Positions 1 to 43,248 of a DNA stretch of 43,248 nt are shown here, in pieces (within the stretch, counting starts at the first letter, position 1; each line of letters starts with the position of its first letter). The DNA comes from a virus, in the IMG/VR virus record IMGVR_UViG_3300045988_178743, one strand, 5' to 3'. The translations under genes were made by a program, and so were the position numbers. The notes below the pieces were generated by a model. The model was given only the letters and a program-made list of their open reading frames with translations, had not been told where the DNA came from and made no database searches.

Positions 1-45
1 CTGATTGTCGGCCTTAGAAGCGCCGAACTTACCGGTGATATTCGG
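1..45 (-). other. 5' fragment of silent fibre cassette V4 (PNITGKFGASKADNQ...), cut by the window edge
   Basis: Bases 1..55 are identical to 42722..42776, where the cassette continues to its stop at 42554. Confidence 0.85.
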
Positions 46-55
46 CGCCGAATAT
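38..55. repeat. Crossover site copy: perfect 18-bp palindrome ATATTCGGCGCCGAATAT between two head-to-head cassette starts
   Basis: Self-complementary by inspection. The same sequence occurs at 42759..42776 and 43194..43211. Confidence 0.9.
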
Positions 56-278
56 AACGGGTCAACTCAATAAATCACCTACGCCTTGGAGCGGCTTACT
101 TTATGAACAAAATGGGGCACTCAAGCCCGTTAACGTAGGTGATACAGCTTATTCCGGTCATACCAACGGTTCAAATTACCGTTTGGAATTTGATGCCTCT
201 TGTTCTAACAAAACCTACGGCAACAGTACAACCGTTCAGCCTCCATCGATTGCGCTCTTGCCGTGTATTAAGTTCTAA
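48..278 (+). other. Silent tail-fibre C-terminal cassette V6 (76 codons, PNITGQLNKSPTPW...TVQPPSIALLPCIKF-stop), no start codon
   Basis: My own translation from CCG at 48. It shares the PNITG start and the VQPP..LLPCIK end with the expressed fibre. It lies convergent with, and overlaps by 11 nt, the stop of gene 268..774. Confidence 0.85.
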
Positions 279-774
279 TGCAGGGGAGCAGGGAGATAGA
301 GGGCGGCTGAACCGTTGCCGAAGATCCGTAGATTGATGAAGTTCTGGATGCATAAAAATTGACAGCATTAGTGCTTGAAGCGCCCCCACCCGGAACATTT
401 ACATTCTGACTGACCATTGAAAACGCTCCGGATGATTCAGTAACCCACGGGGTTCCATTATGAGATCCGCTGATATTCGGTAAGCCCGCGCTTTTAAACG
501 TTCCGGCTGACCCAATTGAGGTTGTGCCCTCGACAAAACGATTCGCTAAATTTGGCAAGTTAAAAGTTGTACTTCCATCACCACTGCCATGTTTTGTACC
601 AATAACTGCGAAAAGCGCTGCGTATGTCGATCGACTCACAGCTGCACCGTTGCAGAGAAGCCAGCCATCAGGAACTGAATAGAAGTGTCCAAGCATTCCT
701 GTTGGCATGCTCAACGGCTTTAGCTTAGGGAGCAGATCATTCAATGCCTGAGAAATTTGAGTAAGAGTTGCCAT
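268..774 (-). CDS. Tail fibre distal subunit with a phage tail-collar-type domain; residues 99-168 are cassette V5 in the expression slot
   Basis: 168 aa. The motif DGWLLCNGAAVSRSTYAALFAVIGTKHGSGDGSTTFNLPNL is typical of the tail collar / MdpB-like domain. It lies last in the baseplate-fibre operon. The C-terminal 70 codons follow the CCGAATATCA junction. Confidence 0.85.
   Translation of the reverse strand: MATLTQISQALNDLLPKLKPLSMPTGMLGHFYSVPDGWLLCNGAAVSRSTYAALFAVIGTKHGSGDGSTTFNLPNLANRFVEGTTSIGSAGTFKSAGLPNISGSHNGTPWVTESSGAFSMVSQNVNVPGGGASSTNAVNFYASRTSSIYGSSATVQPPSISLLPCIRT
471..480 (-). repeat. Half crossover site inside the expressed fibre gene (sense CCGAATATCA = Pro-Asn-Ile-Ser)
   Basis: This is the same 10-mer that opens every silent cassette. 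The 480-bp terminal repeat ends exactly here. Confidence 0.8.
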
Positions 775-791
775 GCCAACCTCTTCAGATG

Positions 792-1391
792 TCAGATGTT
801 CACAGTTTCACCACCCAGCTTGGCAACAGCCTGGGTCAACTGAGTGACAATTATTTTTAAAGATTCGACTTCTTGTGCAGTTGTGCCGCCAATCGGTCGT
901 CCGCCTGGCGTAGCACCATCACCCGCATAAAGTGTCCATGTTTCTGTATTCAGTACAACTTCTCGATCTGCAGGAATTATTTGAGCCAGTTCGGCAGTCG
1001 TGTAGCCTTTAATTTGGATAGCTACACCGCCTGCCTGAAAATCGAGAGGTGTTGCGAGTTTCTTTGCTGTCACTGCTCGCTCAGCAAGATGCAGCTCTTT
1101 CACTGATCCTGCCTTGAGCGCAGCACCATCAAGAGCCCCATCTTTAGTCCATTTGAAAGACTGCAACGCCTCAAGAAACTGTGTGATGCTCGGCGGCTCG
1201 ACTTGCGTCATGCCGCATGCATCGATCACCGAGATGCGCATCTGATCTATCAAATAGAACCACGCAGCCCCTGGTTTGGTTGCGGGAGTCCCGGTTTTTG
1301 GATTGCCGGACGTTGGATAACCTTTTGAACTCAAAGTGCTTAGCGACGGCGGCGAATCGATCGCTGACGCCTGCCAATAACCTGATGTCAT
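792..1391 (-). CDS. Tail fibre proximal subunit
   Basis: 199 aa with an N-terminal GTPATKPGAAWFYLIDQM-type motif as in P2 H / Mu S-like fibre N-termini. It lies between the baseplate gp48-like gene and the collar-domain gene, and its ATGA overlaps the upstream gene. Confidence 0.7.
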   Translation of the reverse strand: MTSGYWQASAIDSPPSLSTLSSKGYPTSGNPKTGTPATKPGAAWFYLIDQMRISVIDACGMTQVEPPSITQFLEALQSFKWTKDGALDGAALKAGSVKELHLAERAVTAKKLATPLDFQAGGVAIQIKGYTTAELAQIIPADREVVLNTETWTLYAGDGATPGGRPIGGTTAQEVESLKIIVTQLTQAVAKLGGETVNI

Positions 1392-20238: not shown

Positions 20239-21062
20239 TTGGTCCTCAATCGGAAGTCTTCCCAGTCGAACGCAAAGCACTGCCCACCATCAGATAGACG
20301 ACTGATGGCGGCATCTCCAAGAACTGTTCGAAGTGAAGCATTCTGAATATCCTTGCCGACGAGAGGCAGATTTGAGATTGCAATGGTTGGTCGGCACTGC
20401 TTGTAGCGACCGTCGATGATTTCGAAAAGTCGGTCAGCCCCGTGGGAAGAAATGGGGCTGCGACCTATCTCATCGATCACAAGCACATCCAGATCAATGT
20501 AGGCACGGATGAGTTTTGCAGCTTCACCTTTCGCACGTCCGGCATCATCTTTGCCGTACGTCTCATAAATCTCAGAGAGCAACAGGCTACAGTCGACGAT
20601 CTTTGCGACGAAGCCTTTGCGGAGTGCGCCCATAACAATTGCTGTGCCTAGATGTGTTTTGCCAGTGCCAGTCTTACCGACAAAAATGAGCGATTTTCCG
20701 CGGTTAACACTTGTCTCAATGTCTTCCCCCCAGGCTAGAACTGCGCTCTTGACCTCTTCCATCTTGGTGTTGAAGGTCTGCCAGGAAGTCACAGTCATGC
20801 CTTGGAATCGCGGAGGGATTTCAAGTGATAAGTGCTGCGCGAGAAATCTTTGCCGAGAGCACTCTGGACAAGACGAAAAATGGAACGTGCAGGAGTCGTC
20901 GACCCAATACGAACGATACCTACCATGCCGAGAGCACTCATCCCACCGCACCTCGAACCGGGAGTCCGTAGTTGTAGTCGATTTCTGCTGTGTTTCTTGC
21001 GCCGAAGCCCGCATAGCCCTGGCGCGAGCGATCAGATCGGTGATTCCCTGCATAGTGTTCAA
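20235..21062 (-). CDS. DnaC/IstB-like AAA+ helicase loader
   Basis: Walker A GKTGTGKTHL and Walker B VLVIDEIG. The start is uncertain (21062, 21053 or 21014). Confidence 0.8.
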   Translation of the reverse strand: MNTMQGITDLIARARAMRASAQETQQKSTTTTDSRFEVRWDECSRHGRYRSYWVDDSCTFHFSSCPECSRQRFLAQHLSLEIPPRFQGMTVTSWQTFNTKMEEVKSAVLAWGEDIETSVNRGKSLIFVGKTGTGKTHLGTAIVMGALRKGFVAKIVDCSLLLSEIYETYGKDDAGRAKGEAAKLIRAYIDLDVLVIDEIGRSPISSHGADRLFEIIDGRYKQCRPTIAISNLPLVGKDIQNASLRTVLGDAAISRLSDGGQCFAFDWEDFRLRTK

Positions 21063-22011
21063 ATCCTTTCTTTTCTCTGCCGATCCAGCCGAGGAATTGA
21101 GTCTTCCACTGCCGCATGGTCTTGGTTGTTGTGTTGTTTGCGCCTAGCCAGCAACGCATCTTGGTGAAAGTTGCTTGAGCATCAATCTCAGGCCTGAGCT
21201 TCTGAGCGTCGACCCGCCAGTCATCCGGAATGTCTTCTGGAAATCGCACGCGAGGAATTCGCTCTTTGCGCGGTTGCTTCGGTTTAGAACAGGCCTCAGA
21301 TTTGCGTTTTGCGGCGTTCTGATCCTTGGTTGGCGTATCGGTACCAAAAAGCGAATCGGATGTCGTAGCGAAAAGCGCATCGATGTTCTCGATGGGTGTT
21401 TGACCGATAGCCGAGCAAACGACCTCTACGTTCACCTCACTTCCGAGACTTTCGGATGCAACTCGTGCTGCCTCGTTGAAAAGTTCGTCATCAAACGGAG
21501 GGGCTTCGCATGTGTGTGCGTCACTACTCTTTTCTTCTTCTCTATTCAGTTCTCTATTCCTTCTCTCTTCGGGGTTCACTTCTGAACCCGGTCCCGGTTC
21601 ACTTCTGAACCCGGTGGGGGTGCACTTCTGAACCCCCTCCCCGTTCACTTCTGAACCCGGTTCACTTTTGAACCCGGTGCACTTCTGAACCGGGGTCAAT
21701 TCCTTACCGGGTTCAGTTCTGAAAGTGGCAATCTTTGACGGCGGTAAAAGATTTAGATGAACTCGGTAATAGCGCTTCTCTCCGTTCTCCTGACGAAAGC
21801 TCAAAAGGCCCCTGTTCACGAGCTCCTTCAATGCAGCACGAACAACATTGCGCGACTTTCTAGCAATGGTCATGATCGACGTAATCGCCGGATAGCACTC
21901 AGAAGTCAGATCTCGATCGTCTACGAAGACCGCAACCGCTTCCAAAACGTCGGTCAACGTTCCATCTTCGAGGCCGCTTACGCGGACGGAAAAAGAAGCT
22001 TTCCAACCCAT
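20938..22011 (-). CDS. Replication initiator (O-like) with N-terminal winged-helix domain; contains the origin iterons
   Basis: 357 aa. The HTH-like segment is SIMTIARKSRNVVRAALKELVNRGLL. The internal peptide repeats GFKSEPGSEVN/GFRSEPGPGSEVN reflect DNA iterons. Confidence 0.7.
   Translation of the reverse strand: MGWKASFSVRVSGLEDGTLTDVLEAVAVFVDDRDLTSECYPAITSIMTIARKSRNVVRAALKELVNRGLLSFRQENGEKRYYRVHLNLLPPSKIATFRTEPGKELTPVQKCTGFKSEPGSEVNGEGVQKCTPTGFRSEPGPGSEVNPEERRNRELNREEEKSSDAHTCEAPPFDDELFNEAARVASESLGSEVNVEVVCSAIGQTPIENIDALFATTSDSLFGTDTPTKDQNAAKRKSEACSKPKQPRKERIPRVRFPEDIPDDWRVDAQKLRPEIDAQATFTKMRCWLGANNTTTKTMRQWKTQFLGWIGREKKGFEHYAGNHRSDRSRQGYAGFGARNTAEIDYNYGLPVRGAVG
21574..21725. repeat. Origin-type iterons: seven copies of GT(T/G)CA(C/G)TT(C/T)TGAAC
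   Basis: Copies start at 21574, 21597, 21620, 21643, 21660, 21677 and 21711, giving spacings of 23, 23, 23, 17, 17 and 34 bp. Each has GTTCA/TGAAC dyad symmetry. Confidence 0.8.
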
Positions 22012-26992: not shown

Positions 26993-28886
26993 CCCAAACT
27001 CCCGGGGATGCACCTAGTCCCGGAACACTCGCGGTGGCAAGGGCAAACCTAACAGGGTAAAGAGATCTCGGATTTTCTTCGGGATCTCTTTTGTTTTCCA
27101 AGCGTTGCGATCAGTTGGTTTATTGGCCTTCAGATAACGCAGCTGCATAAAGGCCTTCGTCAAAGAATTGCTGGGCAAACGGTTCGTTGCCGTTTCGTTG
27201 CGCCGACATGCCATACGCATCATCAGGCGCAGTGACTGGGCCAATACCTGGACAAACAGCTTGCCCATGTAGGTGCTTGAGGTCGCGTAGAGACGATCTC
27301 CAGCAGTTTGATTCTTAAACTGCTGGAAGCTCTGTTCGACAATGTTGCGGGCCCGATAAATGCTCAGAGCGATAAAAGGATCCTGGACGACGTTCGTGCG
27401 GATCACAAAGTTGCCCATGTAGCGGCACGCATCTGCCACTGCCGCGGCATTGCGCATCCAGTGCTGAGGCTCCTTTTTGACCAGGTACCGATGCATTTCT
27501 CTGAGCTGCTCCGAATCCACTTTTTTCCCTTGGTTGAGACGGTCAATCGTTTCATCGAGATTCTTTAGAAAGACTCGTTTCTGCTCGGCCCGCAGACACC
27601 CGTCCTGATACAAATGCAGTGTGTTGTGAATGTGCTGGCGTCCGGCTGCACCGTCTTCCTGCCACATTTCTGTCGTGGTGTACGCCGCCACTTCTAAGCG
27701 GCCATCGGTAAAAGCAGGATCGTCAAGGGAAACGCGGTGCTGATCAAAGAGCCGCCGAACAGAGTCTTCAGCTCGAGTTACACCTTGGACGAATTTCAGT
27801 TCCAGGTTGATGAGTTTTTGCATGTTCATCAAGCTGTGATAACCGCGATCCGTCACCAGCACGGTGTTGGAGAGATCAAATTGATGGTCGATCATGCGCT
27901 GCACAATAGCCAGATAGAGCTGCTTATCGTTAGTCGAGCCTTCGCTTTCGTAGGCATAGCAGACATCTCCCGTCTCGTAATCCACCCCTAAAGACAGATT
28001 CACTTGCCGCAGATGAGGATCCTGTCGGGCATGGCCATAGGCAGCCGAGGCGATGGTCTCTGAGTAAGTGCTGATGCTGGTGGAATCCAAAGCCAAAAAC
28101 TGCGGGATATCGGCAGCTGAGACCTTTTGTCGTGCTTTTAGCAGACGGTCGTGTCGACGTTTGAAGTACCGGTCCATCAGGCTCTGATCAACCACCGCGA
28201 GCTGCTCACTAATGCGCTGGCTCGATAAAGGCTGGGCTTGCGGCAGCCAGACCAAAGCCAGCCAATCCGCGTAATTCATCATGCCGCTGTCTTCCCCGCA
28301 GAGGCGATAGATGGCAAAGCGAAGCAGTTCCGTACCCGTATCTTCGCCAAAAGTCTCCTGTAAGTCCTCGAGCAAGCCATGGTCCACAGCGAATTGCCAG
28401 GCTGCCCAAGTCAACCCCAGTTCGACATCTTCCCCGCGCCAAGACGGCTGCGGTTCGTTGTCCGTATCCGGCTGCTCGAACGGCTCTTGTTCAATGAGCT
28501 GATTATTGTCGTAAAGCCAAAACTTGCCGGCGTATTCCGGGTTATTCGTGAGGAATTTGCGCCCGAGATGGACCTGCCCAGTTTGCGGATCCAAACGCCC
28601 GACATGGCATCGTTTCTCAATGCGTGACTGTTTCTTTTCCGGATCCCAGCGATTGCGATAGCCGTAGACATAGGTACGCCCATCGGCATCCGTGTACGTA
28701 GAGAAAGACCAAGGTTTTGGCGAAGATGGCATGATGTTGTCTATATTAAATAACTATAGACTATGATAAAGATAAAGCAAAGGCTTGTCAAGTTTTTATT
28801 AAATAAAAACAATGGATTAGGAAGAATAAATAGGCCGACTTTGCGTCAGATCAGGACCTCCCGGAGCTAGTCTCCGGGAGTTTGGG
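26993..28886 (-). mobile_element. Intact IS4-superfamily (IS1634-like) insertion sequence, 1894 bp
   Basis: Terminal inverted repeats are CCCAAACTCCCGG (26993..27005) and CCGGGAGTTTGGG (28874..28886), extending imperfectly inward. A 6-bp direct target duplication TTCTTA lies at 26987..26992 and 28887..28892. Confidence 0.85.
27014..28732 (-). CDS. DDE transposase, IS4 superfamily
   Basis: 572 aa with LALDSTS, VTDRGYHS and YRARNIVEQSFQQFK, the last matching the Y-2-R-3-E-6-K signature. Confidence 0.85.
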   Translation of the reverse strand: MPSSPKPWSFSTYTDADGRTYVYGYRNRWDPEKKQSRIEKRCHVGRLDPQTGQVHLGRKFLTNNPEYAGKFWLYDNNQLIEQEPFEQPDTDNEPQPSWRGEDVELGLTWAAWQFAVDHGLLEDLQETFGEDTGTELLRFAIYRLCGEDSGMMNYADWLALVWLPQAQPLSSQRISEQLAVVDQSLMDRYFKRRHDRLLKARQKVSAADIPQFLALDSTSISTYSETIASAAYGHARQDPHLRQVNLSLGVDYETGDVCYAYESEGSTNDKQLYLAIVQRMIDHQFDLSNTVLVTDRGYHSLMNMQKLINLELKFVQGVTRAEDSVRRLFDQHRVSLDDPAFTDGRLEVAAYTTTEMWQEDGAAGRQHIHNTLHLYQDGCLRAEQKRVFLKNLDETIDRLNQGKKVDSEQLREMHRYLVKKEPQHWMRNAAAVADACRYMGNFVIRTNVVQDPFIALSIYRARNIVEQSFQQFKNQTAGDRLYATSSTYMGKLFVQVLAQSLRLMMRMACRRNETATNRLPSNSLTKAFMQLRYLKANKPTDRNAWKTKEIPKKIRDLFTLLGLPLPPRVFRD

Positions 28887-32212: not shown

Positions 32213-33071
32213 TCAACTTCTTCAGGTCTTCTGCTTCAATGATCTCATCTGAAGAGGTTTCAGCAAGAAGGTCTTGTGCGTTCTTCTTGGAAACAATAGA
32301 GTGACCGATCTGCTTTTCTGCATCGCGTCTCGCTCGTCCGGCAACGCCACCACTCTTCTGAGCGACCATCTTGTTTTCCTCAAATGTTTGCGGATTTTGC
32401 GACTTCGTCATTTCGGTAGCCGTTGCTTCAGCAAACATCGTCAAAGCGGTCTCAAGGGTCGTCATGTTATCTCGTAGGTTGCCGCCCTTCATTCCCTTCA
32501 GTTTCTTATGATCCTTGACACTGATACCAAAAGCTCCTGAATGAATGATGTTTGTCAGTGTCGCGTATTGAAGGCCTTCTTGCACGCCGTGAGTCTTCCA
32601 TTGATCAGTTAACTCGTTGCGAACCTGAATACCCTGAATTCGCTGATTGATCCAGGCAGGGCTATACCCTTTCGCCTGATACGTCATTTTTGCGCGGACA
32701 ATAGCCTGCTCAGGGTCGACAGTTTCTTCTATTCGTTCCTTCCCAACAGAAGCTAACCATTGCTTAAAAGGCTCCGCCTTAGGTGACGGGATAGACTGAA
32801 CGATTCGCAGTATTTGTTCAATTGACGCTGCATCCGTTAATCTTCCTTTCCCGTCTGGCGCAGTCATTTTCAACCGTACGATATTTTCGTACGTTTGATT
32901 GGCCCCCTCTTTTTTCAGCTTCCGCTTTAGATCGCTCCAATACCGTTTAGGTTCAGAGCTGCCGGTAAGTACGCTGACAACGTCAACCACGCTGAAAAAC
33001 CTCTCTTCCTTCTGATCATCCCAAGCAGATCGCACTTGATGATCTTCAAACAATTGAATCTTCCCTTTCAT
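32208..33071 (-). CDS. Bro-N/DinD-like (DNA-damage-inducible protein D-like) protein
   Basis: The start MKGKIQLFEDHQVRSAWDDQKEERFFSVVDVV overlaps the integrase stop (ATGA). SPKAEPFKQWLASVG is the Bro-N-type motif. Confidence 0.6.
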   Translation of the reverse strand: MKGKIQLFEDHQVRSAWDDQKEERFFSVVDVVSVLTGSSEPKRYWSDLKRKLKKEGANQTYENIVRLKMTAPDGKGRLTDAASIEQILRIVQSIPSPKAEPFKQWLASVGKERIEETVDPEQAIVRAKMTYQAKGYSPAWINQRIQGIQVRNELTDQWKTHGVQEGLQYATLTNIIHSGAFGISVKDHKKLKGMKGGNLRDNMTTLETALTMFAEATATEMTKSQNPQTFEENKMVAQKSGGVAGRARRDAEKQIGHSIVSKKNAQDLLAETSSDEIIEAEDLKKLK

Positions 33072-34414
33072 TTCATCTCCTTCCAACAAAATTCTCCCCA
33101 AGCTTCGTAGACATCTCTCATGTCGCCCAGCGCCTGCTCACGGTCGTAAGCGCACTGATAGCTTTCATTACGATGATCAAGGCAGCTCTCTCGCAGATCA
33201 CGCGGGAAAGCCTTGTGCCCATAGCCCTTCGCATCCTTCGCCCAGGTATTGAAAGTCGCACGAGCAAGGCCGTGCAGCGTCACGATTCTAGGCTGCCCGT
33301 CCCGCGTTTTTTCGTCCAGATCAACCCAGCCGACGCCGTCAATCTTCTTCTGCTTGACGTGCATGCGCTTCAGCAGCGCTCGCACAGAATCACGGCTGAA
33401 AGCGGAGAGACGGCCCTTGTTGATGTTCGGAAAGATGAAGCCCTTCTCATCGTCCGGAAACCTCGGCGCACTGTCGAGAAGCGCTGTCGCCTGCGGACTT
33501 AGAGGCGTCTTTCGGTCAAAAGGAATCTTGTCGCTCTTCATCTTCATGCGACCACGAGGAATGACATGCAGCCAATGGCCGTCATCGTCCTGCTGAATTT
33601 CGTCCCAAGTTGCTTCACGTGCCGTGGTGTTCCGCGCTGATGTAAGAATGGCAAAAGCAAGGCAACGTGCAGTCTGGCTTTGCGGCACCAGCTTCATAAG
33701 CTCGGCAAAAAAAGCTGGCATTCTCTTCGGATGAAGAGCTGGTTCGTGACCACCATCCGGTCGATCAAGCGCGAGAAGGTCACCGAGCTTTCCATTTTTC
33801 ACCTGACACGGATTGAGCATGGCCGGGATCATCTCCTGTCTCATAGCCCAGTCATATGCATTGCGCATATCGGACAAGATGCGTTCTGGCGTGTCTATCA
33901 TCGTTCGCCACTTCTCTCCGATTTCCTCATGTACTCGTTCGGCAGTCAAATCCTTCGCCGACATGGAGAGCAGTGATGCAGATAAGTGATTTCGGCAGTA
34001 ACCATCCCAGACAAGCTCTTTTGGCTTTAAGGCATTCTTCCACCGTCCACGTTCTTCATTGAACCGGATCCAGCTGTAGACAATGTCTTTAACTGAAGGT
34101 TCTCGCGGAGACTCTAGCAGCCTTGTAAGCTGCTCTGCTTTTTGCTTCTTGACTTCTGAAGGATCTATTCCATCATCCAGCATCCGCCGCCAATCCGCAG
34201 CCATCATAAAAGCTTCACTTAAGCTCAGCTGAGGGTAAGAGCCAAGATTAAAGCACCGTTTAGTGCGACGATCCCGCAGAACGAAATATTTGACAATCGA
34301 ACCGTCACTCCTGCTGCGTGGACGGACATACAGACCAGGAACTACCCCACAAGCCGTTTCGGAAGTAACGCTTCGGAGTTTTTTATCGGTCATTTTGACT
34401 GCGACTCTAGGCAT
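33068..34414 (-). CDS. int: Tyrosine integrase (P4/CP4-57-like)
   Basis: 448 aa. The N-terminal GLYVRPRSRSDGSIVKYFVLR is an arm-binding type motif. Catalytic candidates are R (TSARNTTAREA), HxxR (HGLARAT) and H...Y (LDHRNESYQCAYDRE). It is adjacent to the att-like region. Confidence 0.85.
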   Translation of the reverse strand: MPRVAVKMTDKKLRSVTSETACGVVPGLYVRPRSRSDGSIVKYFVLRDRRTKRCFNLGSYPQLSLSEAFMMAADWRRMLDDGIDPSEVKKQKAEQLTRLLESPREPSVKDIVYSWIRFNEERGRWKNALKPKELVWDGYCRNHLSASLLSMSAKDLTAERVHEEIGEKWRTMIDTPERILSDMRNAYDWAMRQEMIPAMLNPCQVKNGKLGDLLALDRPDGGHEPALHPKRMPAFFAELMKLVPQSQTARCLAFAILTSARNTTAREATWDEIQQDDDGHWLHVIPRGRMKMKSDKIPFDRKTPLSPQATALLDSAPRFPDDEKGFIFPNINKGRLSAFSRDSVRALLKRMHVKQKKIDGVGWVDLDEKTRDGQPRIVTLHGLARATFNTWAKDAKGYGHKAFPRDLRESCLDHRNESYQCAYDREQALGDMRDVYEAWGEFCWKEMK

Positions 34415-34645: not shown

Positions 34646-34665
34646 TGGTCGGGGCGGCGGGATTC
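34646..34665 (-). other. att core resembling the 3' end of a tRNA gene (partial, not a functional tRNA)
   Basis: The minus sense reads GAAT-CCCGC-CGCCCCG-A-CCA, which is T-loop end, T-stem 3' strand, acceptor 3' strand, discriminator and CCA. No matching 5' half lies upstream. Confidence 0.6.
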
Positions 34666-39920: not shown

Positions 39921-40675
39921 TCGCTCACAGAAAAGTCGACGGGATGAAACTTGATTTCGATAGCTTCAAGCTCATCTTTCGACGTTGCGGCGTTGATAGC
40001 ATCGCGCAGCTTCCACTTCTCCTGATAAGCAGCGGTACCGGCCGCAATGATTTCGAGCTGAAGTGTCTTGAGATCTGAGAGCGTTACTTTGTGAGCTTCA
40101 TTGTTGGCATCCATAAAGAGCAGACCAGTCTCGGCGAACGTAGTACTGGCTTCTGCCGCTACGATGAGACCGGTAACGTCTTGCATCGCACGGCTATCGC
40201 TGTCAACTTCAAAGCCGAGTGAACTTACAAGCGTTGCGCCATCGGCATACCAAGTTGTAAACGTCGAATCGAGTTGAGCTGTTTTTTCAGCTTTGGCATC
40301 TTCGAACGTCTTTTCGGGAATTTTCTCGACCCTCCAAGAAAGGTTGTCACCTCTCACAACGTGGTACTCACTCGATCCTTCGGTCAGTTTCTGGAAAAGT
40401 TCGCGCAACTCACTGCAGTGAGCCGTCTGCGATTCATGCGAGATAACACCACACGCAACACACTCGGCGGCAGTCGTCGGCTTCTTTTCTGCATCAAAAC
40501 CGTCACGCGTCGCGTTTAACTTGTAAAAGAAATGTTCCGTGTCTTCGGGCACGGCAGCTTCTGCAACATTGGCTGGGAGGCTGATCCCGCCTCCCATCTG
40601 CACCGAGCAGACGCCTTCAAAATAGCCGTCCTCGTCTACAAAAGGGAGGTCTTTGAGCAAATGATTGGATGGCAT
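39917..40675 (-). CDS. DUF4376-like protein (fibre assembly/accessory)
   Basis: Start MPSNHLLKDLPF. The C-terminal ...LSDLKTLQLEIIAAGTAAYQEKWKLRDAINAATSKDELEAIEI resembles DUF4376. Confidence 0.55.
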   Translation of the reverse strand: MPSNHLLKDLPFVDEDGYFEGVCSVQMGGGISLPANVAEAAVPEDTEHFFYKLNATRDGFDAEKKPTTAAECVACGVISHESQTAHCSELRELFQKLTEGSSEYHVVRGDNLSWRVEKIPEKTFEDAKAEKTAQLDSTFTTWYADGATLVSSLGFEVDSDSRAMQDVTGLIVAAEASTTFAETGLLFMDANNEAHKVTLSDLKTLQLEIIAAGTAAYQEKWKLRDAINAATSKDELEAIEIKFHPVDFSVSE

Positions 40676-40677
40676 GA

Positions 40678-41847
40678 ATGCGCTCCTCCTTATCTTCAAA
40701 AAAAATTGCGGCCTTAAAGCCGCGTGAAAAACGATTCGCTGTGGCTGACGGCCACGGTTTGTGTTTGCGTATCTATCCTTCTGGCGTTAAAAGTTGGTAC
40801 CTGCGCATCTCATATTCAGGCCGCGTGACAGACATCGCACTCGGTCGATGGCCAGAAATCAGCTTGATGCAAGCTCGACAGGAAGCTCGCAGGCGACGAA
40901 AAACACTTGGTCTTGAACCACCGAGAGGCTATGTCTTAAATGACGCCTTCAAACTTTGGTGTGGTCTAAAGAAAGGCCGCATCGTGAGTTACGCCGACGA
41001 ACGTCGACGATTGGAGCGCTATCTCATCAAACCCCTCGGAAGACGCCAGATTGACGAAATCTCTGCACCACTCGTCATTACAACCGTTAAGCACATCGAG
41101 GCAGAGGGGCATCAAGCAACACTGAAGCGCGTTCTCATGCGAACACGTGAAATACTTGACCTCGCCGTGTGTGCGGGCTACATCCATCACAATCCTTGCG
41201 AGCGTTTGAGCCGTGTCTTTGCAGCTCCCGTTGTTACGCCCATGCCGGCACCGGAGTGGCATGAACTACCAAACATCATGCAGGTGATGAAATCCGCTCC
41301 CGTACGTATGCGAATTCTTTTCCTTTTCTCGACCTGTTCAATGCTGCGTCCTGGGGAAAACGCAAAGCTCAAGCGTTCATGGATTGATGGCGACATCCTC
41401 ACGATCCCCGCCAAAGAGATGAAAATGGGGCGTATGCACCGTGTTCCGCTCACTGTCTTCATGAAGCAACTCCTCGAAGCTGAGCTACGCCTTTCTCCCC
41501 ATCCCAGAGGAGATGTCATCTTCGCTGCCAAACAAGCGGGCAAACATATCAGCACTCAAACGCTTGCTAAGTATCTGCATTCAACGCAACTCTCCGGGAA
41601 GCTCGTGGCCCACGGTCTACGTTCGATGGCACGATCGTGGATGGCAGATCAAGAGATTTCTTTTGAAGTCGCTGAAGCATGCCTTTCACATGTTGCTGGC
41701 TCTTCTGTATCGCGGGCCTACCAAAGAAGCGACTTTCTCACAGCACGCGTTCTAGTTATGACGCGCTGGAGTACCTTCATCAAGCGCTGTGCCCGAGAAG
41801 CCGATATGCTCGATGGAATCCTTGAACCCGAGCGGGACAAGATCTGA
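40678..41847 (+). CDS. Tyrosine recombinase, P4-integrase-like architecture; candidate fibre-cassette invertase
   Basis: 389 aa. The N-terminal IAALKPREKRFAVADGHGLCLRIYPSGVKSWYLR is DUF4102-like. Catalytic candidates are R (MLRPGE), HxxR (AHGLRS), H (LSH) and Y (SRAYQRSD). It is immediately upstream of the cassette array. Confidence 0.85.
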   Translation: MRSSLSSKKIAALKPREKRFAVADGHGLCLRIYPSGVKSWYLRISYSGRVTDIALGRWPEISLMQARQEARRRRKTLGLEPPRGYVLNDAFKLWCGLKKGRIVSYADERRRLERYLIKPLGRRQIDEISAPLVITTVKHIEAEGHQATLKRVLMRTREILDLAVCAGYIHHNPCERLSRVFAAPVVTPMPAPEWHELPNIMQVMKSAPVRMRILFLFSTCSMLRPGENAKLKRSWIDGDILTIPAKEMKMGRMHRVPLTVFMKQLLEAELRLSPHPRGDVIFAAKQAGKHISTQTLAKYLHSTQLSGKLVAHGLRSMARSWMADQEISFEVAEACLSHVAGSSVSRAYQRSDFLTARVLVMTRWSTFIKRCAREADMLDGILEPERDKI

Positions 41848-41872
41848 TCTAATCACCCAATATGACATGTGC

Positions 41873-41909
41873 CTAGCCCTGCGTTTAGAAGTACAGACCG
41901 CAGGGCTAG
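41873..41909 (+). terminator. Hairpin after the recombinase gene
   Basis: CTAGCCCTGCG-N15-CGCAGGGCTAG (11-bp stem). The T-tract is weak (AAACGTGCTTTT). Confidence 0.45.
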
Positions 41910-41926
41910 AAACGTGCTTTTGATGA

Positions 41927-42142
41927 CCGAATATCACTGGTCAATTTCAGGGTGGTGACCACCTTGAGACACTGGCTTCCGGCGCCTTTGGATACGCAAA
42001 AGAATCCACATCTACCCTTGGTGGAGGCGCTTATAAGTTAGATATCGGAGATTTCAAGGCTTCTCGAAGCTCTTCCGTCTACGGGGGCTATTCTGGCGTT
42101 CAACCACCAAGCATTGCCATGCTCCCATGCATCAAAATTTGA
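41927..42142 (+). other. Silent fibre cassette V1 (71 codons, PNITGQFQGGDHLE...GVQPPSIAMLPCIKI-stop)
   Basis: My own translation. In-frame TGA TGA precedes it directly and there is no start codon. The site at its 5' end is only a half-site. Confidence 0.85.
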
Positions 42143-42347
42143 TACAAGGAAGCAATGCCATTGCCGGAGGCTGAACAGTTGAAGCTGAGCCGTAAATCGA
42201 AGATGATTTAGACGCATTTATGTACAAGTTGGTACCGTTGTCTGCTCCGCCCCCAGGACCTCTTGTGGTTTCGCTTTTGTACAAAGCTCCGGCTTCAGCA
42301 AGGCCACCCCATGCGTAAGACATATTGATGTTGCCGGTTATATTCGG
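42132..42347 (-). other. Silent fibre cassette V2 (71 codons, PNITGNINMSYAWGG...TVQPPAMALLPCIKF-stop)
   Basis: It is the C-terminal part of ORF-track ORF 42132..42464. The stop overlaps the V1 stop by 11 nt. Confidence 0.85.
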
Positions 42348-42356
42348 TCCGAATAT
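42340..42356. repeat. Crossover site s1: 17-bp palindrome ATATTCGG-T-CCGAATAT between V2 and V3
   Basis: Seen by direct inspection. Flanking arms are imperfectly symmetric out to about 35 bp. Confidence 0.85.
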
Positions 42357-42564
42357 CACAGGTAACGTCAATGTCGCTAAAGGGTGGGGCAGCATCGCAG
42401 ATGCCGGCGCTTTATATAGAGAGGGGACTACACAAGCACCGGGGGGCGGTGCCGCAAACGGCACTTATGTGTACTTAGTGGCGTCTAGATCTTCCTCAGT
42501 TTTCGGCTCTTCTTCTACTGTTCAACCGCCATCCGTTGCGTTGTTGCCATGCATCAAAATTTAA
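42349..42564 (+). other. Silent fibre cassette V3 (71 codons, PNITGNVNVAKGWGS...TVQPPSVALLPCIKI-stop)
   Basis: It is the C-terminal part of ORF-track ORF 42325..42564. Confidence 0.85.
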
Positions 42565-42766
42565 TGCAAGGTAGAAGCGCCATCGCCGGAGGCTGAACAC
42601 CAGAAGAGCGGCCGAACGTCGAATCGGACGACGAAGCGTCAAAAGAGAATTGAACCGCAGAGGTTTGACTACCATTTGCCCCATTCAAGTAACCGGCATT
42701 CGAAAACGCACCTGAAATGGTCTGATTGTCGGCCTTAGAAGCGCCGAACTTACCGGTGATATTCGG
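42554..42766 (-). other. Silent fibre cassette V4 (70 codons, PNITGKFGASKADNQTISGAF...GVQPPAMALLPCIKF-stop)
   Basis: My own codon-by-codon translation. An in-frame TGA lies 3 codons upstream of PNITG. The stop overlaps the V3 stop by 11 nt. Confidence 0.85.
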
Positions 42767-42776
42767 CGCCGAATAT
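42759..42776. repeat. Crossover site s2: perfect 18-bp palindrome ATATTCGGCGCCGAATAT (22 bp if the TG..CA flanks are included)
   Basis: Seen by direct inspection. It is identical to 38..55. Confidence 0.9.
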
Positions 42777-42981
42777 CAGCGGATCTCATAATGGAACCCC
42801 GTGGGTTACTGAATCATCCGGAGCGTTTTCAATGGTCAGTCAGAATGTAAATGTTCCGGGTGGGGGCGCTTCAAGCACTAATGCTGTCAATTTTTATGCA
42901 TCCAGAACTTCATCAATCTACGGATCTTCGGCAACGGTTCAGCCGCCCTCTATCTCCCTGCTCCCCTGCATTAGAACTTAA
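42769..42981 (+). other. Inverted duplicate of cassette V5, the tip currently in the expressed gene
   Basis: It is the exact reverse complement of 268..480 and here is joined to the V4 flank instead of the constant part of the gene. Confidence 0.9.
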
Positions 42982-43201
42982 TACACGGCAAGAGCGCAAT
43001 CGATGGAGGCTGAACGGTTGTACTGTTGCCGTAGGTTTTGTTAGAACAAGAGGCATCAAATTCCAAACGGTAATTTGAACCGTTGGTATGACCGGAATAA
43101 GCTGTATCACCTACGTTAACGGGCTTGAGTGCCCCATTTTGTTCATAAAGTAAGCCGCTCCAAGGCGTAGGTGATTTATTGAGTTGACCCGTTATATTCG
43201 G
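42971..43201 (-). other. Inverted duplicate of cassette V6
   Basis: It is the exact reverse complement of 48..278. Confidence 0.9.
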
Positions 43202-43211
43202 CGCCGAATAT
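43194..43211. repeat. Crossover site copy (mirror of 38..55)
   Basis: The same 18-bp palindrome. Confidence 0.9.
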
Positions 43212-43248
43212 CACCGGTAAGTTCGGCGCTTCTAAGGCCGACAATCAG

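Follow-up and report, generated by a model that had tools for sequence, protein, structure and literature searches.

A six-cassette tail-fibre shufflon in a temperate phage of Sutterella wadsworthensis, with a probable inversion junction preserved at the contig end

The stretch of viral DNA analysed here (43,248 nucleotides, IMG/VR record IMGVR_UViG_3300045988_178743; the window in what follows) carries at positions 42722-42790 a junction that very probably arose when a phage shufflon underwent site-specific inversion. The module to which the junction belongs is, by its structure, a shufflon of three segments and six cassettes: three adjacent segments hold six crossover cores, three per strand, one constant 5' part is combined with alternative in-frame 3' parts, and permuted arrangements of identical DNA are found in independent samples. 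The array exchanges the C-terminus, 70-76 residues long, of a tail-collar fibre protein of 168 aa.

The fibre gene is located among the baseplate genes. Between it and the gene of a tyrosine recombinase lie three convergent cassette pairs (V1><V2, V3><V4 and V6><V5), and the parts of the module are the following.

268-774, minus strand: collar fibre gene, whole, 168 aa (translation)
481..774, minus strand: constant N-terminal 98 codons of the fibre gene (Pfam PF07484 Collar, E=8e-22)
268..480, minus strand: cassette V5, 70 aa, fused to the constant region and currently expressed; core 473-480
48..278, plus strand: silent cassette V6, 76 aa; core 48-55
42554..42766, minus strand: silent cassette V4, 70 aa; core 42759-42766
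42349..42564, plus strand: silent cassette V3, 71 aa; core 42349-42356, 1 nt from the V2 core
42132..42347, minus strand: silent cassette V2, 71 aa; core 42340-42347
41927..42142, plus strand: silent cassette V1, 71 aa, PNITGQFQ...CIKI; core 41927-41934
41848..41926, plus strand: spacer from the recombinase stop codon to the outermost site, fixed (sequence reading)
40678..41847, plus strand: tyrosine recombinase, 389 aa, candidate shufflon invertase (Pfam PF13356, PF22022, PF00589)

The constant 5' part ends in ...GGC TTA and is followed by the 8-bp core CCGAATAT, which encodes Pro-Asn-Ile. All six cassettes start with the core, are in frame with it, run for 70-76 codons and share the end motif VQPPS.ALLPCIK. 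The five silent cassettes are promoterless and have no start codon of their own; upstream of each there is either the core of its neighbour on the opposite strand or the fixed spacer. The end of the spacer (...TTGATGA) serves as the left flank of the outermost site, and the spacer as a whole is 95-100% conserved in relatives and keeps its position in every arrangement. It also contains an 11-bp inverted repeat (41873-41883 / 41899-41909), which we considered as a terminator hairpin and dropped, since a consensus terminator scan did not call one there.

Several further observations concern the same region. In each pair the two cassettes share 11 nt that span the stop codons (268-278, 42132-42142 and 42554-42564; for example TCAAAATTTGA), and the common C-terminal motif gives rise to a long imperfect palindrome in the middle of the segment in each pair. 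A pseudo-core with one mismatch, CCCAATAT, is found just past the recombinase stop codon (41856-41863), is oriented like the V1 core and is conserved in three related contigs (L003, L005 and L007). A pair of relic cassettes upstream of the recombinase, suggested by the repeated 9-mers TGCATCAAA and GGAGGCTGA, was rejected on sequence and translation. The gene just upstream of the collar gene (792-1391, minus strand) has an Mtd_N domain, the N-terminal domain of the major tropism determinant known as the target of the diversity-generating retroelement (DGR) of a Bordetella phage. A DGR was considered owing to this adjacent protein, and no reverse transcriptase was found among the window ORFs scanned (the 30 largest).

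The evidence for the inversion starts at the two ends of the window, where three features have to be distinguished.

1..47, minus strand: V4 start and CG linker, duplicate of 42722-42768, the parental left flank (repeat search)
42722..42790, no strand assigned: recombinant junction, V4 start with CG linker and core joined to V5 (sequence reading, repeat search)
42769..43248, no strand assigned: redundant inverted copy of 1-480 (repeat search)

A repeat search of the window identified a direct repeat of 1-55 at 42722-42776 (100% identity), an inverted repeat of 1-480 at 42769-43248 (100% complementary) and a third, again inverted and 100% complementary, between 42722-42776 and 43194-43248. The first 45 nt of V4 thus recur at window 1-45, and the V4 flank with the 18-bp palindrome ATATTCGGCGCCGAATAT is present both at 38-55 and at 42759-42776. 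From position 56 the palindrome continues into AACGGGTCAAC, which is V6, and from 42777 into CAGCGGATCTC, which is V5 and equals the reverse complement of the end of the expressed gene (473-480 and downstream). The initial annotation had described one V4 flank with these two partners, a direct identity ending at 55/42776 and an inverted identity ending at 480/42769, with both breakpoints on the edges of CCGAATAT; the repeat search gave exactly the same ends, and reading of the sequence the same partners and edges. Its proposal that V4-V6 is the parental and V4-V5 the recombinant junction of one inversion is likewise supported, with the site at 48-55 and the gene site at 473-480 as the two participants. 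Two details have to be revised. The palindrome at 38-55, which had been taken for one site, is made up of two back-to-back sites, the V6 core at 48-55 being the one that took part; and what had been called a half-site in the gene is a full equivalent site, consisting of the 8-bp core and the cassette-side flank.

Could the V4-V5 junction simply be a chimeric join made by the assembler, a pure artefact with no recombination behind it? The last 480 bases are indeed a redundant inverted copy, and at its end the contig returns to its own start in reverse complement, which is physically implausible. In this respect the earlier concern about an assembly error was justified for 42769-43248, but it does not extend to the junction itself. 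The V4-V5 sequence overlaps its other parent, the constant region joined to V5, by 8 bp only, and since the parents have no more than this in common at that point, the junction is not a misjoin in the assembly graph: such an overlap is far below the k-mer or overlap length of an assembler, and the junction must therefore exist in the reads. Moreover, independent samples contain, at 100% identity, the reciprocal junction as well as numerous further joins between these cassettes. We consequently regard a pure artefact as extremely unlikely. The last 527 bases instead reflect another route taken by the assembler through a mixed population, with the V6/V5 segment reversed, and not a second physical copy. 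Positions 42777-43248 correspond to the flipped V6/V5 segment followed by the reverse complement of the first 55 bases of the contig. In a population with both orientations of this segment, the assembler would have left the branch node twice, and one state of the segment would have been written at the contig start and the other at the contig end. The repeat length of exactly 55 bp suggests an assembly k of 55. A related contig, L003, has the same fold-back signature at the spacer site, and an 80-kb contig, L001, stops 3 nt past the outermost core, the base after the core being different. In short, the terminal block is assembly redundancy that preserves a genuine recombinant junction.

The crossover site can be delimited from the distribution and conservation of the core. 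There are 10 copies of CCGAATAT in the window compared with 0.88 expected, and none of 100 shuffles reached 10; in the non-redundant part (1-42721) the number is six, all at cassette starts. Back-to-back cores are separated by 2 nt (V4 and V6, linker CG) or 1 nt (V2 and V3) in the window and by 0 to about 5 nt in relatives, and because the spacing varies in this way, the palindromes represent two sites each rather than a single dyad. Within a locus the cores are uniform: 23 of 23 distinct sites in the clade of the window are CCGAATAT, all 16 sites in locus L024 and all nine in L027 are CCAAACAT, and all 10 in L033 are CCTAATAT. Between lineages there are only synonymous differences in the codons for Pro-Asn-Ile/Met (CCGAATAT, CCGAACAT, CCAAACAT and CCTAATAT). 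The base after the core, which is the wobble position of the Ile codon, varies within loci. The invariance of the cores together with the variability of the next base indicates that nucleotide identity is selected over exactly 8 bp. To the left of the core there is no conservation, and to the right only.A..GG recurs, a pattern confounded by Thr/Ser-Gly coding. Counting of k-mers gave nothing convincing beyond the cores that could represent arm-type repeat sites. In known tyrosine recombinases the overlap between the staggered cuts is 6-8 bp, and the 8-bp core would contain this overlap region.

If the array is shuffled by inversion, other arrangements of the same cassettes can be sought in public data. 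We looked up the six predicted fusion proteins as exact sequences in public assemblies and found five of the six, namely the constant part with V1, V2, V3, V5 and V6; the public collection contained no exact protein for the fusion with V4. V1 is fused to the constant part in L058 and L059, V2 in L040, L041, L043 and L044, and V3 in L056 and L057. The contig L038, from an independent sample, has the constant part, V6 and inverted V5 in this order, each with 100% identity to the window, and it contains the exact 35-mer AAAGCGCGGGCTTACCGAATATAACGGGTCAACTC, that is, the reciprocal junction of the constant region with V6 that had been predicted from the window. The arrangements of the array, with > and < giving the cassette direction, are these.

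Window: const>V5 V6<CG>V4 V3<A>V2 V1<spacer
L040: const>V2 V1<CG>V4 V3<A>V5 V6<spacer
L041: const>V2 V1<CG>V3 V4<T>V6 V5<spacer
L056: const>V3 V4<CG>V1 V2<A>V5 V6<spacer
L058: const>V1 V2<T>V3 V4<CG>V6 V5<spacer
L060: const>V5 V6<T>V3 V4<CG>V2 V1<spacer
L043/L044: const>V2 V1'<CG>V6 V5<T>V4 V3<spacer

These seven arrangements are built from the window's cassettes as exact matches, and in five of the seven all six are exact; the exceptions are V1' in L043/L044, a diverged V1 allele, and V6 of L060, which is not exact over its full length. Since the arrangements come from short-read assemblies, full orders may be mosaic paths, while each single junction is real. L058 corresponds to the window after one inversion of the whole array between the gene core and the V1 core, and L060 to the window after one internal inversion between the V6 and V2 cores. 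The linkers and flanks (...CTTA of the constant part, CG, A/T and ...TGA of the spacer) are only moved or flipped and are never recombined away from their sites. In other words, every sampled crossover falls inside the 8-bp core. Sister strains represented by the JGI contigs L046, L050 and L052 show the same behaviour, a cassette being silent in one contig and fused to the constant part in another. Within a single sample, the evidence of switching is the window's own two junctions only. The exact V4-V5 junction was not found again in the other public sequences searched, nor was the exact V4-CG-core flank in JGI metagenome contigs or IMG/VR; in L043 and L044, V5 does lie beside V4, but across the other linker.

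Inversion does not appear to be the only source of variation in these arrays. The Logan contig L059 (SRR5274068) reads const>V1 V2<T>V3 V4<spacer and is missing both the V6/V5 segment and the CG linker, which could be due either to a deletion between directly oriented cores or to a mosaic short-read path. In L004, L017 and L039 the flanking genes are 98-99% identical to those of the window, while the cassette repertoires and pairings are partly different; in L004, for instance, the partner of a V3-like cassette is V6-like. Differences in repertoire among phages with such similar flanking genes imply that cassettes are also exchanged between phages, by a route other than inversion.

The enzyme most likely to act on these sites is encoded next to them. 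The 389-aa recombinase has three domains, at the N-terminus an arm-binding domain of the CP4/P4 type, then a central and a catalytic one, with PF00589 matching the last at E=4e-16 and PF13356 the arm domain at E=3e-16; residues 4-79 also match the arm domain of the CP4-like integrase 3JTZ (E=1e-15). The R..K..HxxR..H/W..Y residues of the tyrosine recombinase superfamily are all present in the catalytic domain (R224, K249, H312, R315, H338 and Y348, with roles assigned from motif position), and none of them varies among 12 homologues with 62-100% identity. The gene sits in the late region, adjoins the cassettes and reads towards the array from its far side. Its ATG (40678) is 1 nt away from the ATG of a divergent DUF4376 gene (complement of 40674-40676), which leaves room for a recombinase promoter only within the coding sequence of that neighbour.

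A survey of loci in one-genome-per-species contigs, with recombinase homologues down to 42% identity, revealed that cassettes and/or the collar gene adjoin the recombinase in 16 of the 17 loci for which the sequence extends far enough downstream. The order of recombinase, cassettes and collar gene is kept down to 42% identity, in Sutterella, Duodenibacillus, Ca. Aphodousia and Succinatimonas, and the module recurs in Sutterellaceae prophages with arrays of two to at least 16 cassettes. The largest array, in Ca. Aphodousia gallistercoris (L024, 5240-9134, core CCAAACAT), reaches the end of the locus with at least 16 cassettes; L033 (3479-5554, core CCTAATAT) has 10, several of them back-to-back with 0-nt spacing, and L025 has four in a single orientation. 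On the strength of this adjacency and co-distribution, we infer that the adjacent recombinase catalyses the inversions.

A serine invertase of the Gin/Cin/Min type, encoded by the phage or by the host as in Mu, P1 and p15B, would lead to an equal outcome, the switching of a tail-fibre C-terminus by inversion, and its 2-bp staggered cut would fit inside the 8-bp core. Nonetheless, such an enzyme is a very unlikely agent here. There is no resolvase-type Pfam hit among the 30 largest ORFs of the window and no serine-recombinase catalytic motif in any of its open frames. The sites are not 12-2-12 dyads, as follows from the unconserved left flank and the variable gaps between cores, and it is a tyrosine recombinase that co-occurs with the array across divergent lineages.

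Another set of readings takes the adjacent recombinase for a second integrase and attributes the junctions to host homologous or microhomology recombination, or to two fixed strains that diverged long ago. These are somewhat less improbable, yet still quite unlikely. It is worth pointing out in their favour that the protein has a full integrase architecture including the arm-binding domain, whereas the shufflon invertases described so far are without that domain. However, the phage already has an integrase at its attP. Eight base pairs are too short for RecA-type exchange, and the breakpoints are precise in every case. Synonymous core changes keep the sites of a locus identical, which points to selection for site identity, and the 480-bp arms are 100% identical, contrary to what would be expected of long-diverged strains. 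We therefore retain site-specific inversion by the adjacent tyrosine recombinase as the preferred reading.

The integration site bears on the roles of the recombinase and of the phage integrase. The feature concerned lies outside the switch.

33068..34414, minus strand: phage integrase, 448 aa; attP near 34646-34665

In lysogen contigs the gene of this 448-aa integrase is directly beside host pheT, ihfA and tRNA-Pro(GGG), and homology between lysogen and window starts within the 3' end of the tRNA-Pro gene, at window position 34665; the window thus carries attP and represents the circular phage form. The attP core overlaps the 3' end of tRNA-Pro(GGG) downstream of pheT-ihfA (window 34646-34665; L012 9693-9769). 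The shufflon recombinase has only marginal similarity to this integrase. It shares the domain architecture of CP4/P4-type integrases, but it does not share their other characteristic, that of integrating at an att site next to which the enzyme is encoded: the prophage edge beside tRNA-Pro is occupied by the other integrase, and integration is attributed to that enzyme.

The genome in the window belongs to a temperate phage of Sutterella wadsworthensis with a Mu/P2-like tail and is present in its circular form, with a length of about 42,721 bp. This size follows from the 55-bp direct repeat, through which position 42721 continues into position 1, leaving 42777-43248 as surplus. A Pfam scan of the 30 largest ORFs identified terminase, portal, protease, capsid, sheath, tail terminator, a tape-measure-like protein and baseplate proteins of the Mu gp44/45/46/47(J)/48 type, as well as an S24 repressor, a YqaJ exonuclease and an IstB-like loader; holin and lysozyme domains occur on neighbouring genes in a related contig. 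As to the host, public sources name the recombinase and fibre proteins as Sutterella wadsworthensis, and strain DSM 14016 of this species has a copy of the recombinase with 99% identity. The exact 448-aa integrase is indexed in 2,614 blocks of a public collection, and the phage must accordingly be very common in gut metagenomes. When 20 kb of the window were compared with the GenBank phages by megablast, there was no match, so that no described close relative was found. Two features of the genome outside the switch deserve mention. Clustered 17/23-bp iteron-like repeats (GGTTCACTTCTGAACCC) at 21548-21723, inside or beside an unannotated gene (20938-22011) and near the gene of the IstB-like loader, are probably the replication origin. 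An IS4-family DDE transposase is encoded within the phage early region (27014-28732, minus strand); a 533-aa transposase of the same Pfam family is found at the corresponding position in the lysogen contigs L012 and L014 and is absent in L013, L015 and L016, which indicates a recent insertion polymorphism.

According to the proposed mechanism, the recombinase would synapse two inverted cores, exchange strands within their 8-bp identity and flip the DNA between them, and the flip would fuse another cassette in frame to the constant part. By our own calculation, three segments would allow six isoforms of the protein, and the number of arrangements would be 48 if both the order and the orientation of the segments are counted. 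The isoforms presumably differ in host or receptor specificity. A more far-reaching idea, which we put forward tentatively and consider possible rather than probable, concerns the evolution of the enzyme. In Sutterellaceae prophages, an entire clade of CP4/P4-type integrases that retain their arm domain might have turned into dedicated shufflon invertases acting on an 8-bp Pro-Asn-Ile overlap, and the arm domain might control synapsis and directionality, giving inversion and not deletion, unlike in the armless Rci and Rin.

In a full-text search of the literature on Sutterella prophages and shufflons, no description of the present system was found. The principle is known from the R64 shufflon and from Rin, whereas the phage group and the type of enzyme appear to be undescribed. 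The system is a widespread addition to the short list of phage shufflons driven by tyrosine recombinases, is common in human-gut metagenomes and would diversify receptor binding. It is of moderate interest, owing to the integrase-type invertase, the 8-bp core embedded in codons, the size of the arrays and the abundant public evidence; public data alone place the crossover within 8 bp. Arrays with at least 16 cassettes amount to a natural library of swappable fibre tips on one scaffold, which may be of use in host-range engineering, and with an invertase that retains its arm domain one can examine what makes shufflons prefer inversion to deletion. Finally, active invertible DNA has a recognisable assembly signature, in which a contig breaks off at the core or turns back on itself there.

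Among known systems, the shufflon of R64 and other IncI plasmids consists of convergent pairs with 19-bp sfx sites beside the gene of the tyrosine recombinase Rci, and its target is the pilus adhesin PilV. The sfx sites are asymmetric, with a conserved core and one conserved flank, the other flank being free. The Sutterella array resembles it in the adjacent tyrosine recombinase, the convergent pairs, the constant N-terminus with in-frame C-termini and the asymmetric sites. It differs in its target, a phage tail-collar fibre, and in the invariant block, which is 8 bp within Pro-Asn-Ile codons as opposed to the 19-bp sfx. Rci has no arm-binding domain (PMC8138268), and the Sutterella recombinase with its CP4-type arm domain is set apart from Rci as described by this architecture.

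A second comparable system is the Rin shufflon of Bifidobacterium and Eggerthella lenta prophages (PMC6109161, PMC8778435). Rin is a phage-encoded, XerD-like, two-domain tyrosine recombinase without an arm-binding domain (PMC6109161). It acts on asymmetric 11-bp rix repeats at cassette starts, its variants are seen in prophage and virion reads, and its target is the receptor-binding protein of TP901-1-type siphoviruses in Actinobacteria (PMC6109161, PMC8778435). In both systems a phage tyrosine recombinase flanks receptor-binding C-terminal cassettes, the constant part lies on the opposite side and the host is a human-gut bacterium. The present phage differs from the Rin phages in its contractile tail, Mu-like baseplate, Collar-domain target, betaproteobacterial host and core. 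Its recombinase is not of the XerD-like armless type, as the arm-domain matches to PF13356 and 3JTZ indicate, and judged by predicted architecture it is no orthologue of Rin.

Inversion of tail-fibre genes is also carried out by Min (p15B), Cin (P1), Gin (Mu) and Pin (e14), which are serine recombinases with dyad sites and a 2-bp exchange; the Min system has multiple invertible segments. The switching of phage tail-fibre C-termini by DNA inversion is common to these systems and ours. Unlike them, the window has no resolvase-domain enzyme among the ORFs scanned and no dyad sites of about 26 bp. The shufflon of BV01-like Phocaeicola phages, described in a 2026 preprint, produces six isoforms from three cassettes, with a directional motif of 10 bp and a recombinase at its flank; all of its configurations are seen in gut samples, and its cassettes alter the position of the stop codon (PMC13596623). 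It is thus similar to the present system as a tail-fibre shufflon with six isoforms and a flanking recombinase. The host phylum, the motif and the fibre protein are different, and here a uniform 70-aa module is swapped. A Collar-domain (PF07484) protein, the PilV-tail-collar fusion, has likewise been reported as a target of programmed inversions (Milman et al. 2023, PMC9881135). The two systems share a Collar-domain protein as the inversion target, but in that case the protein belongs to a conjugative-pilus operon, whereas in the present one it belongs to a phage tail.
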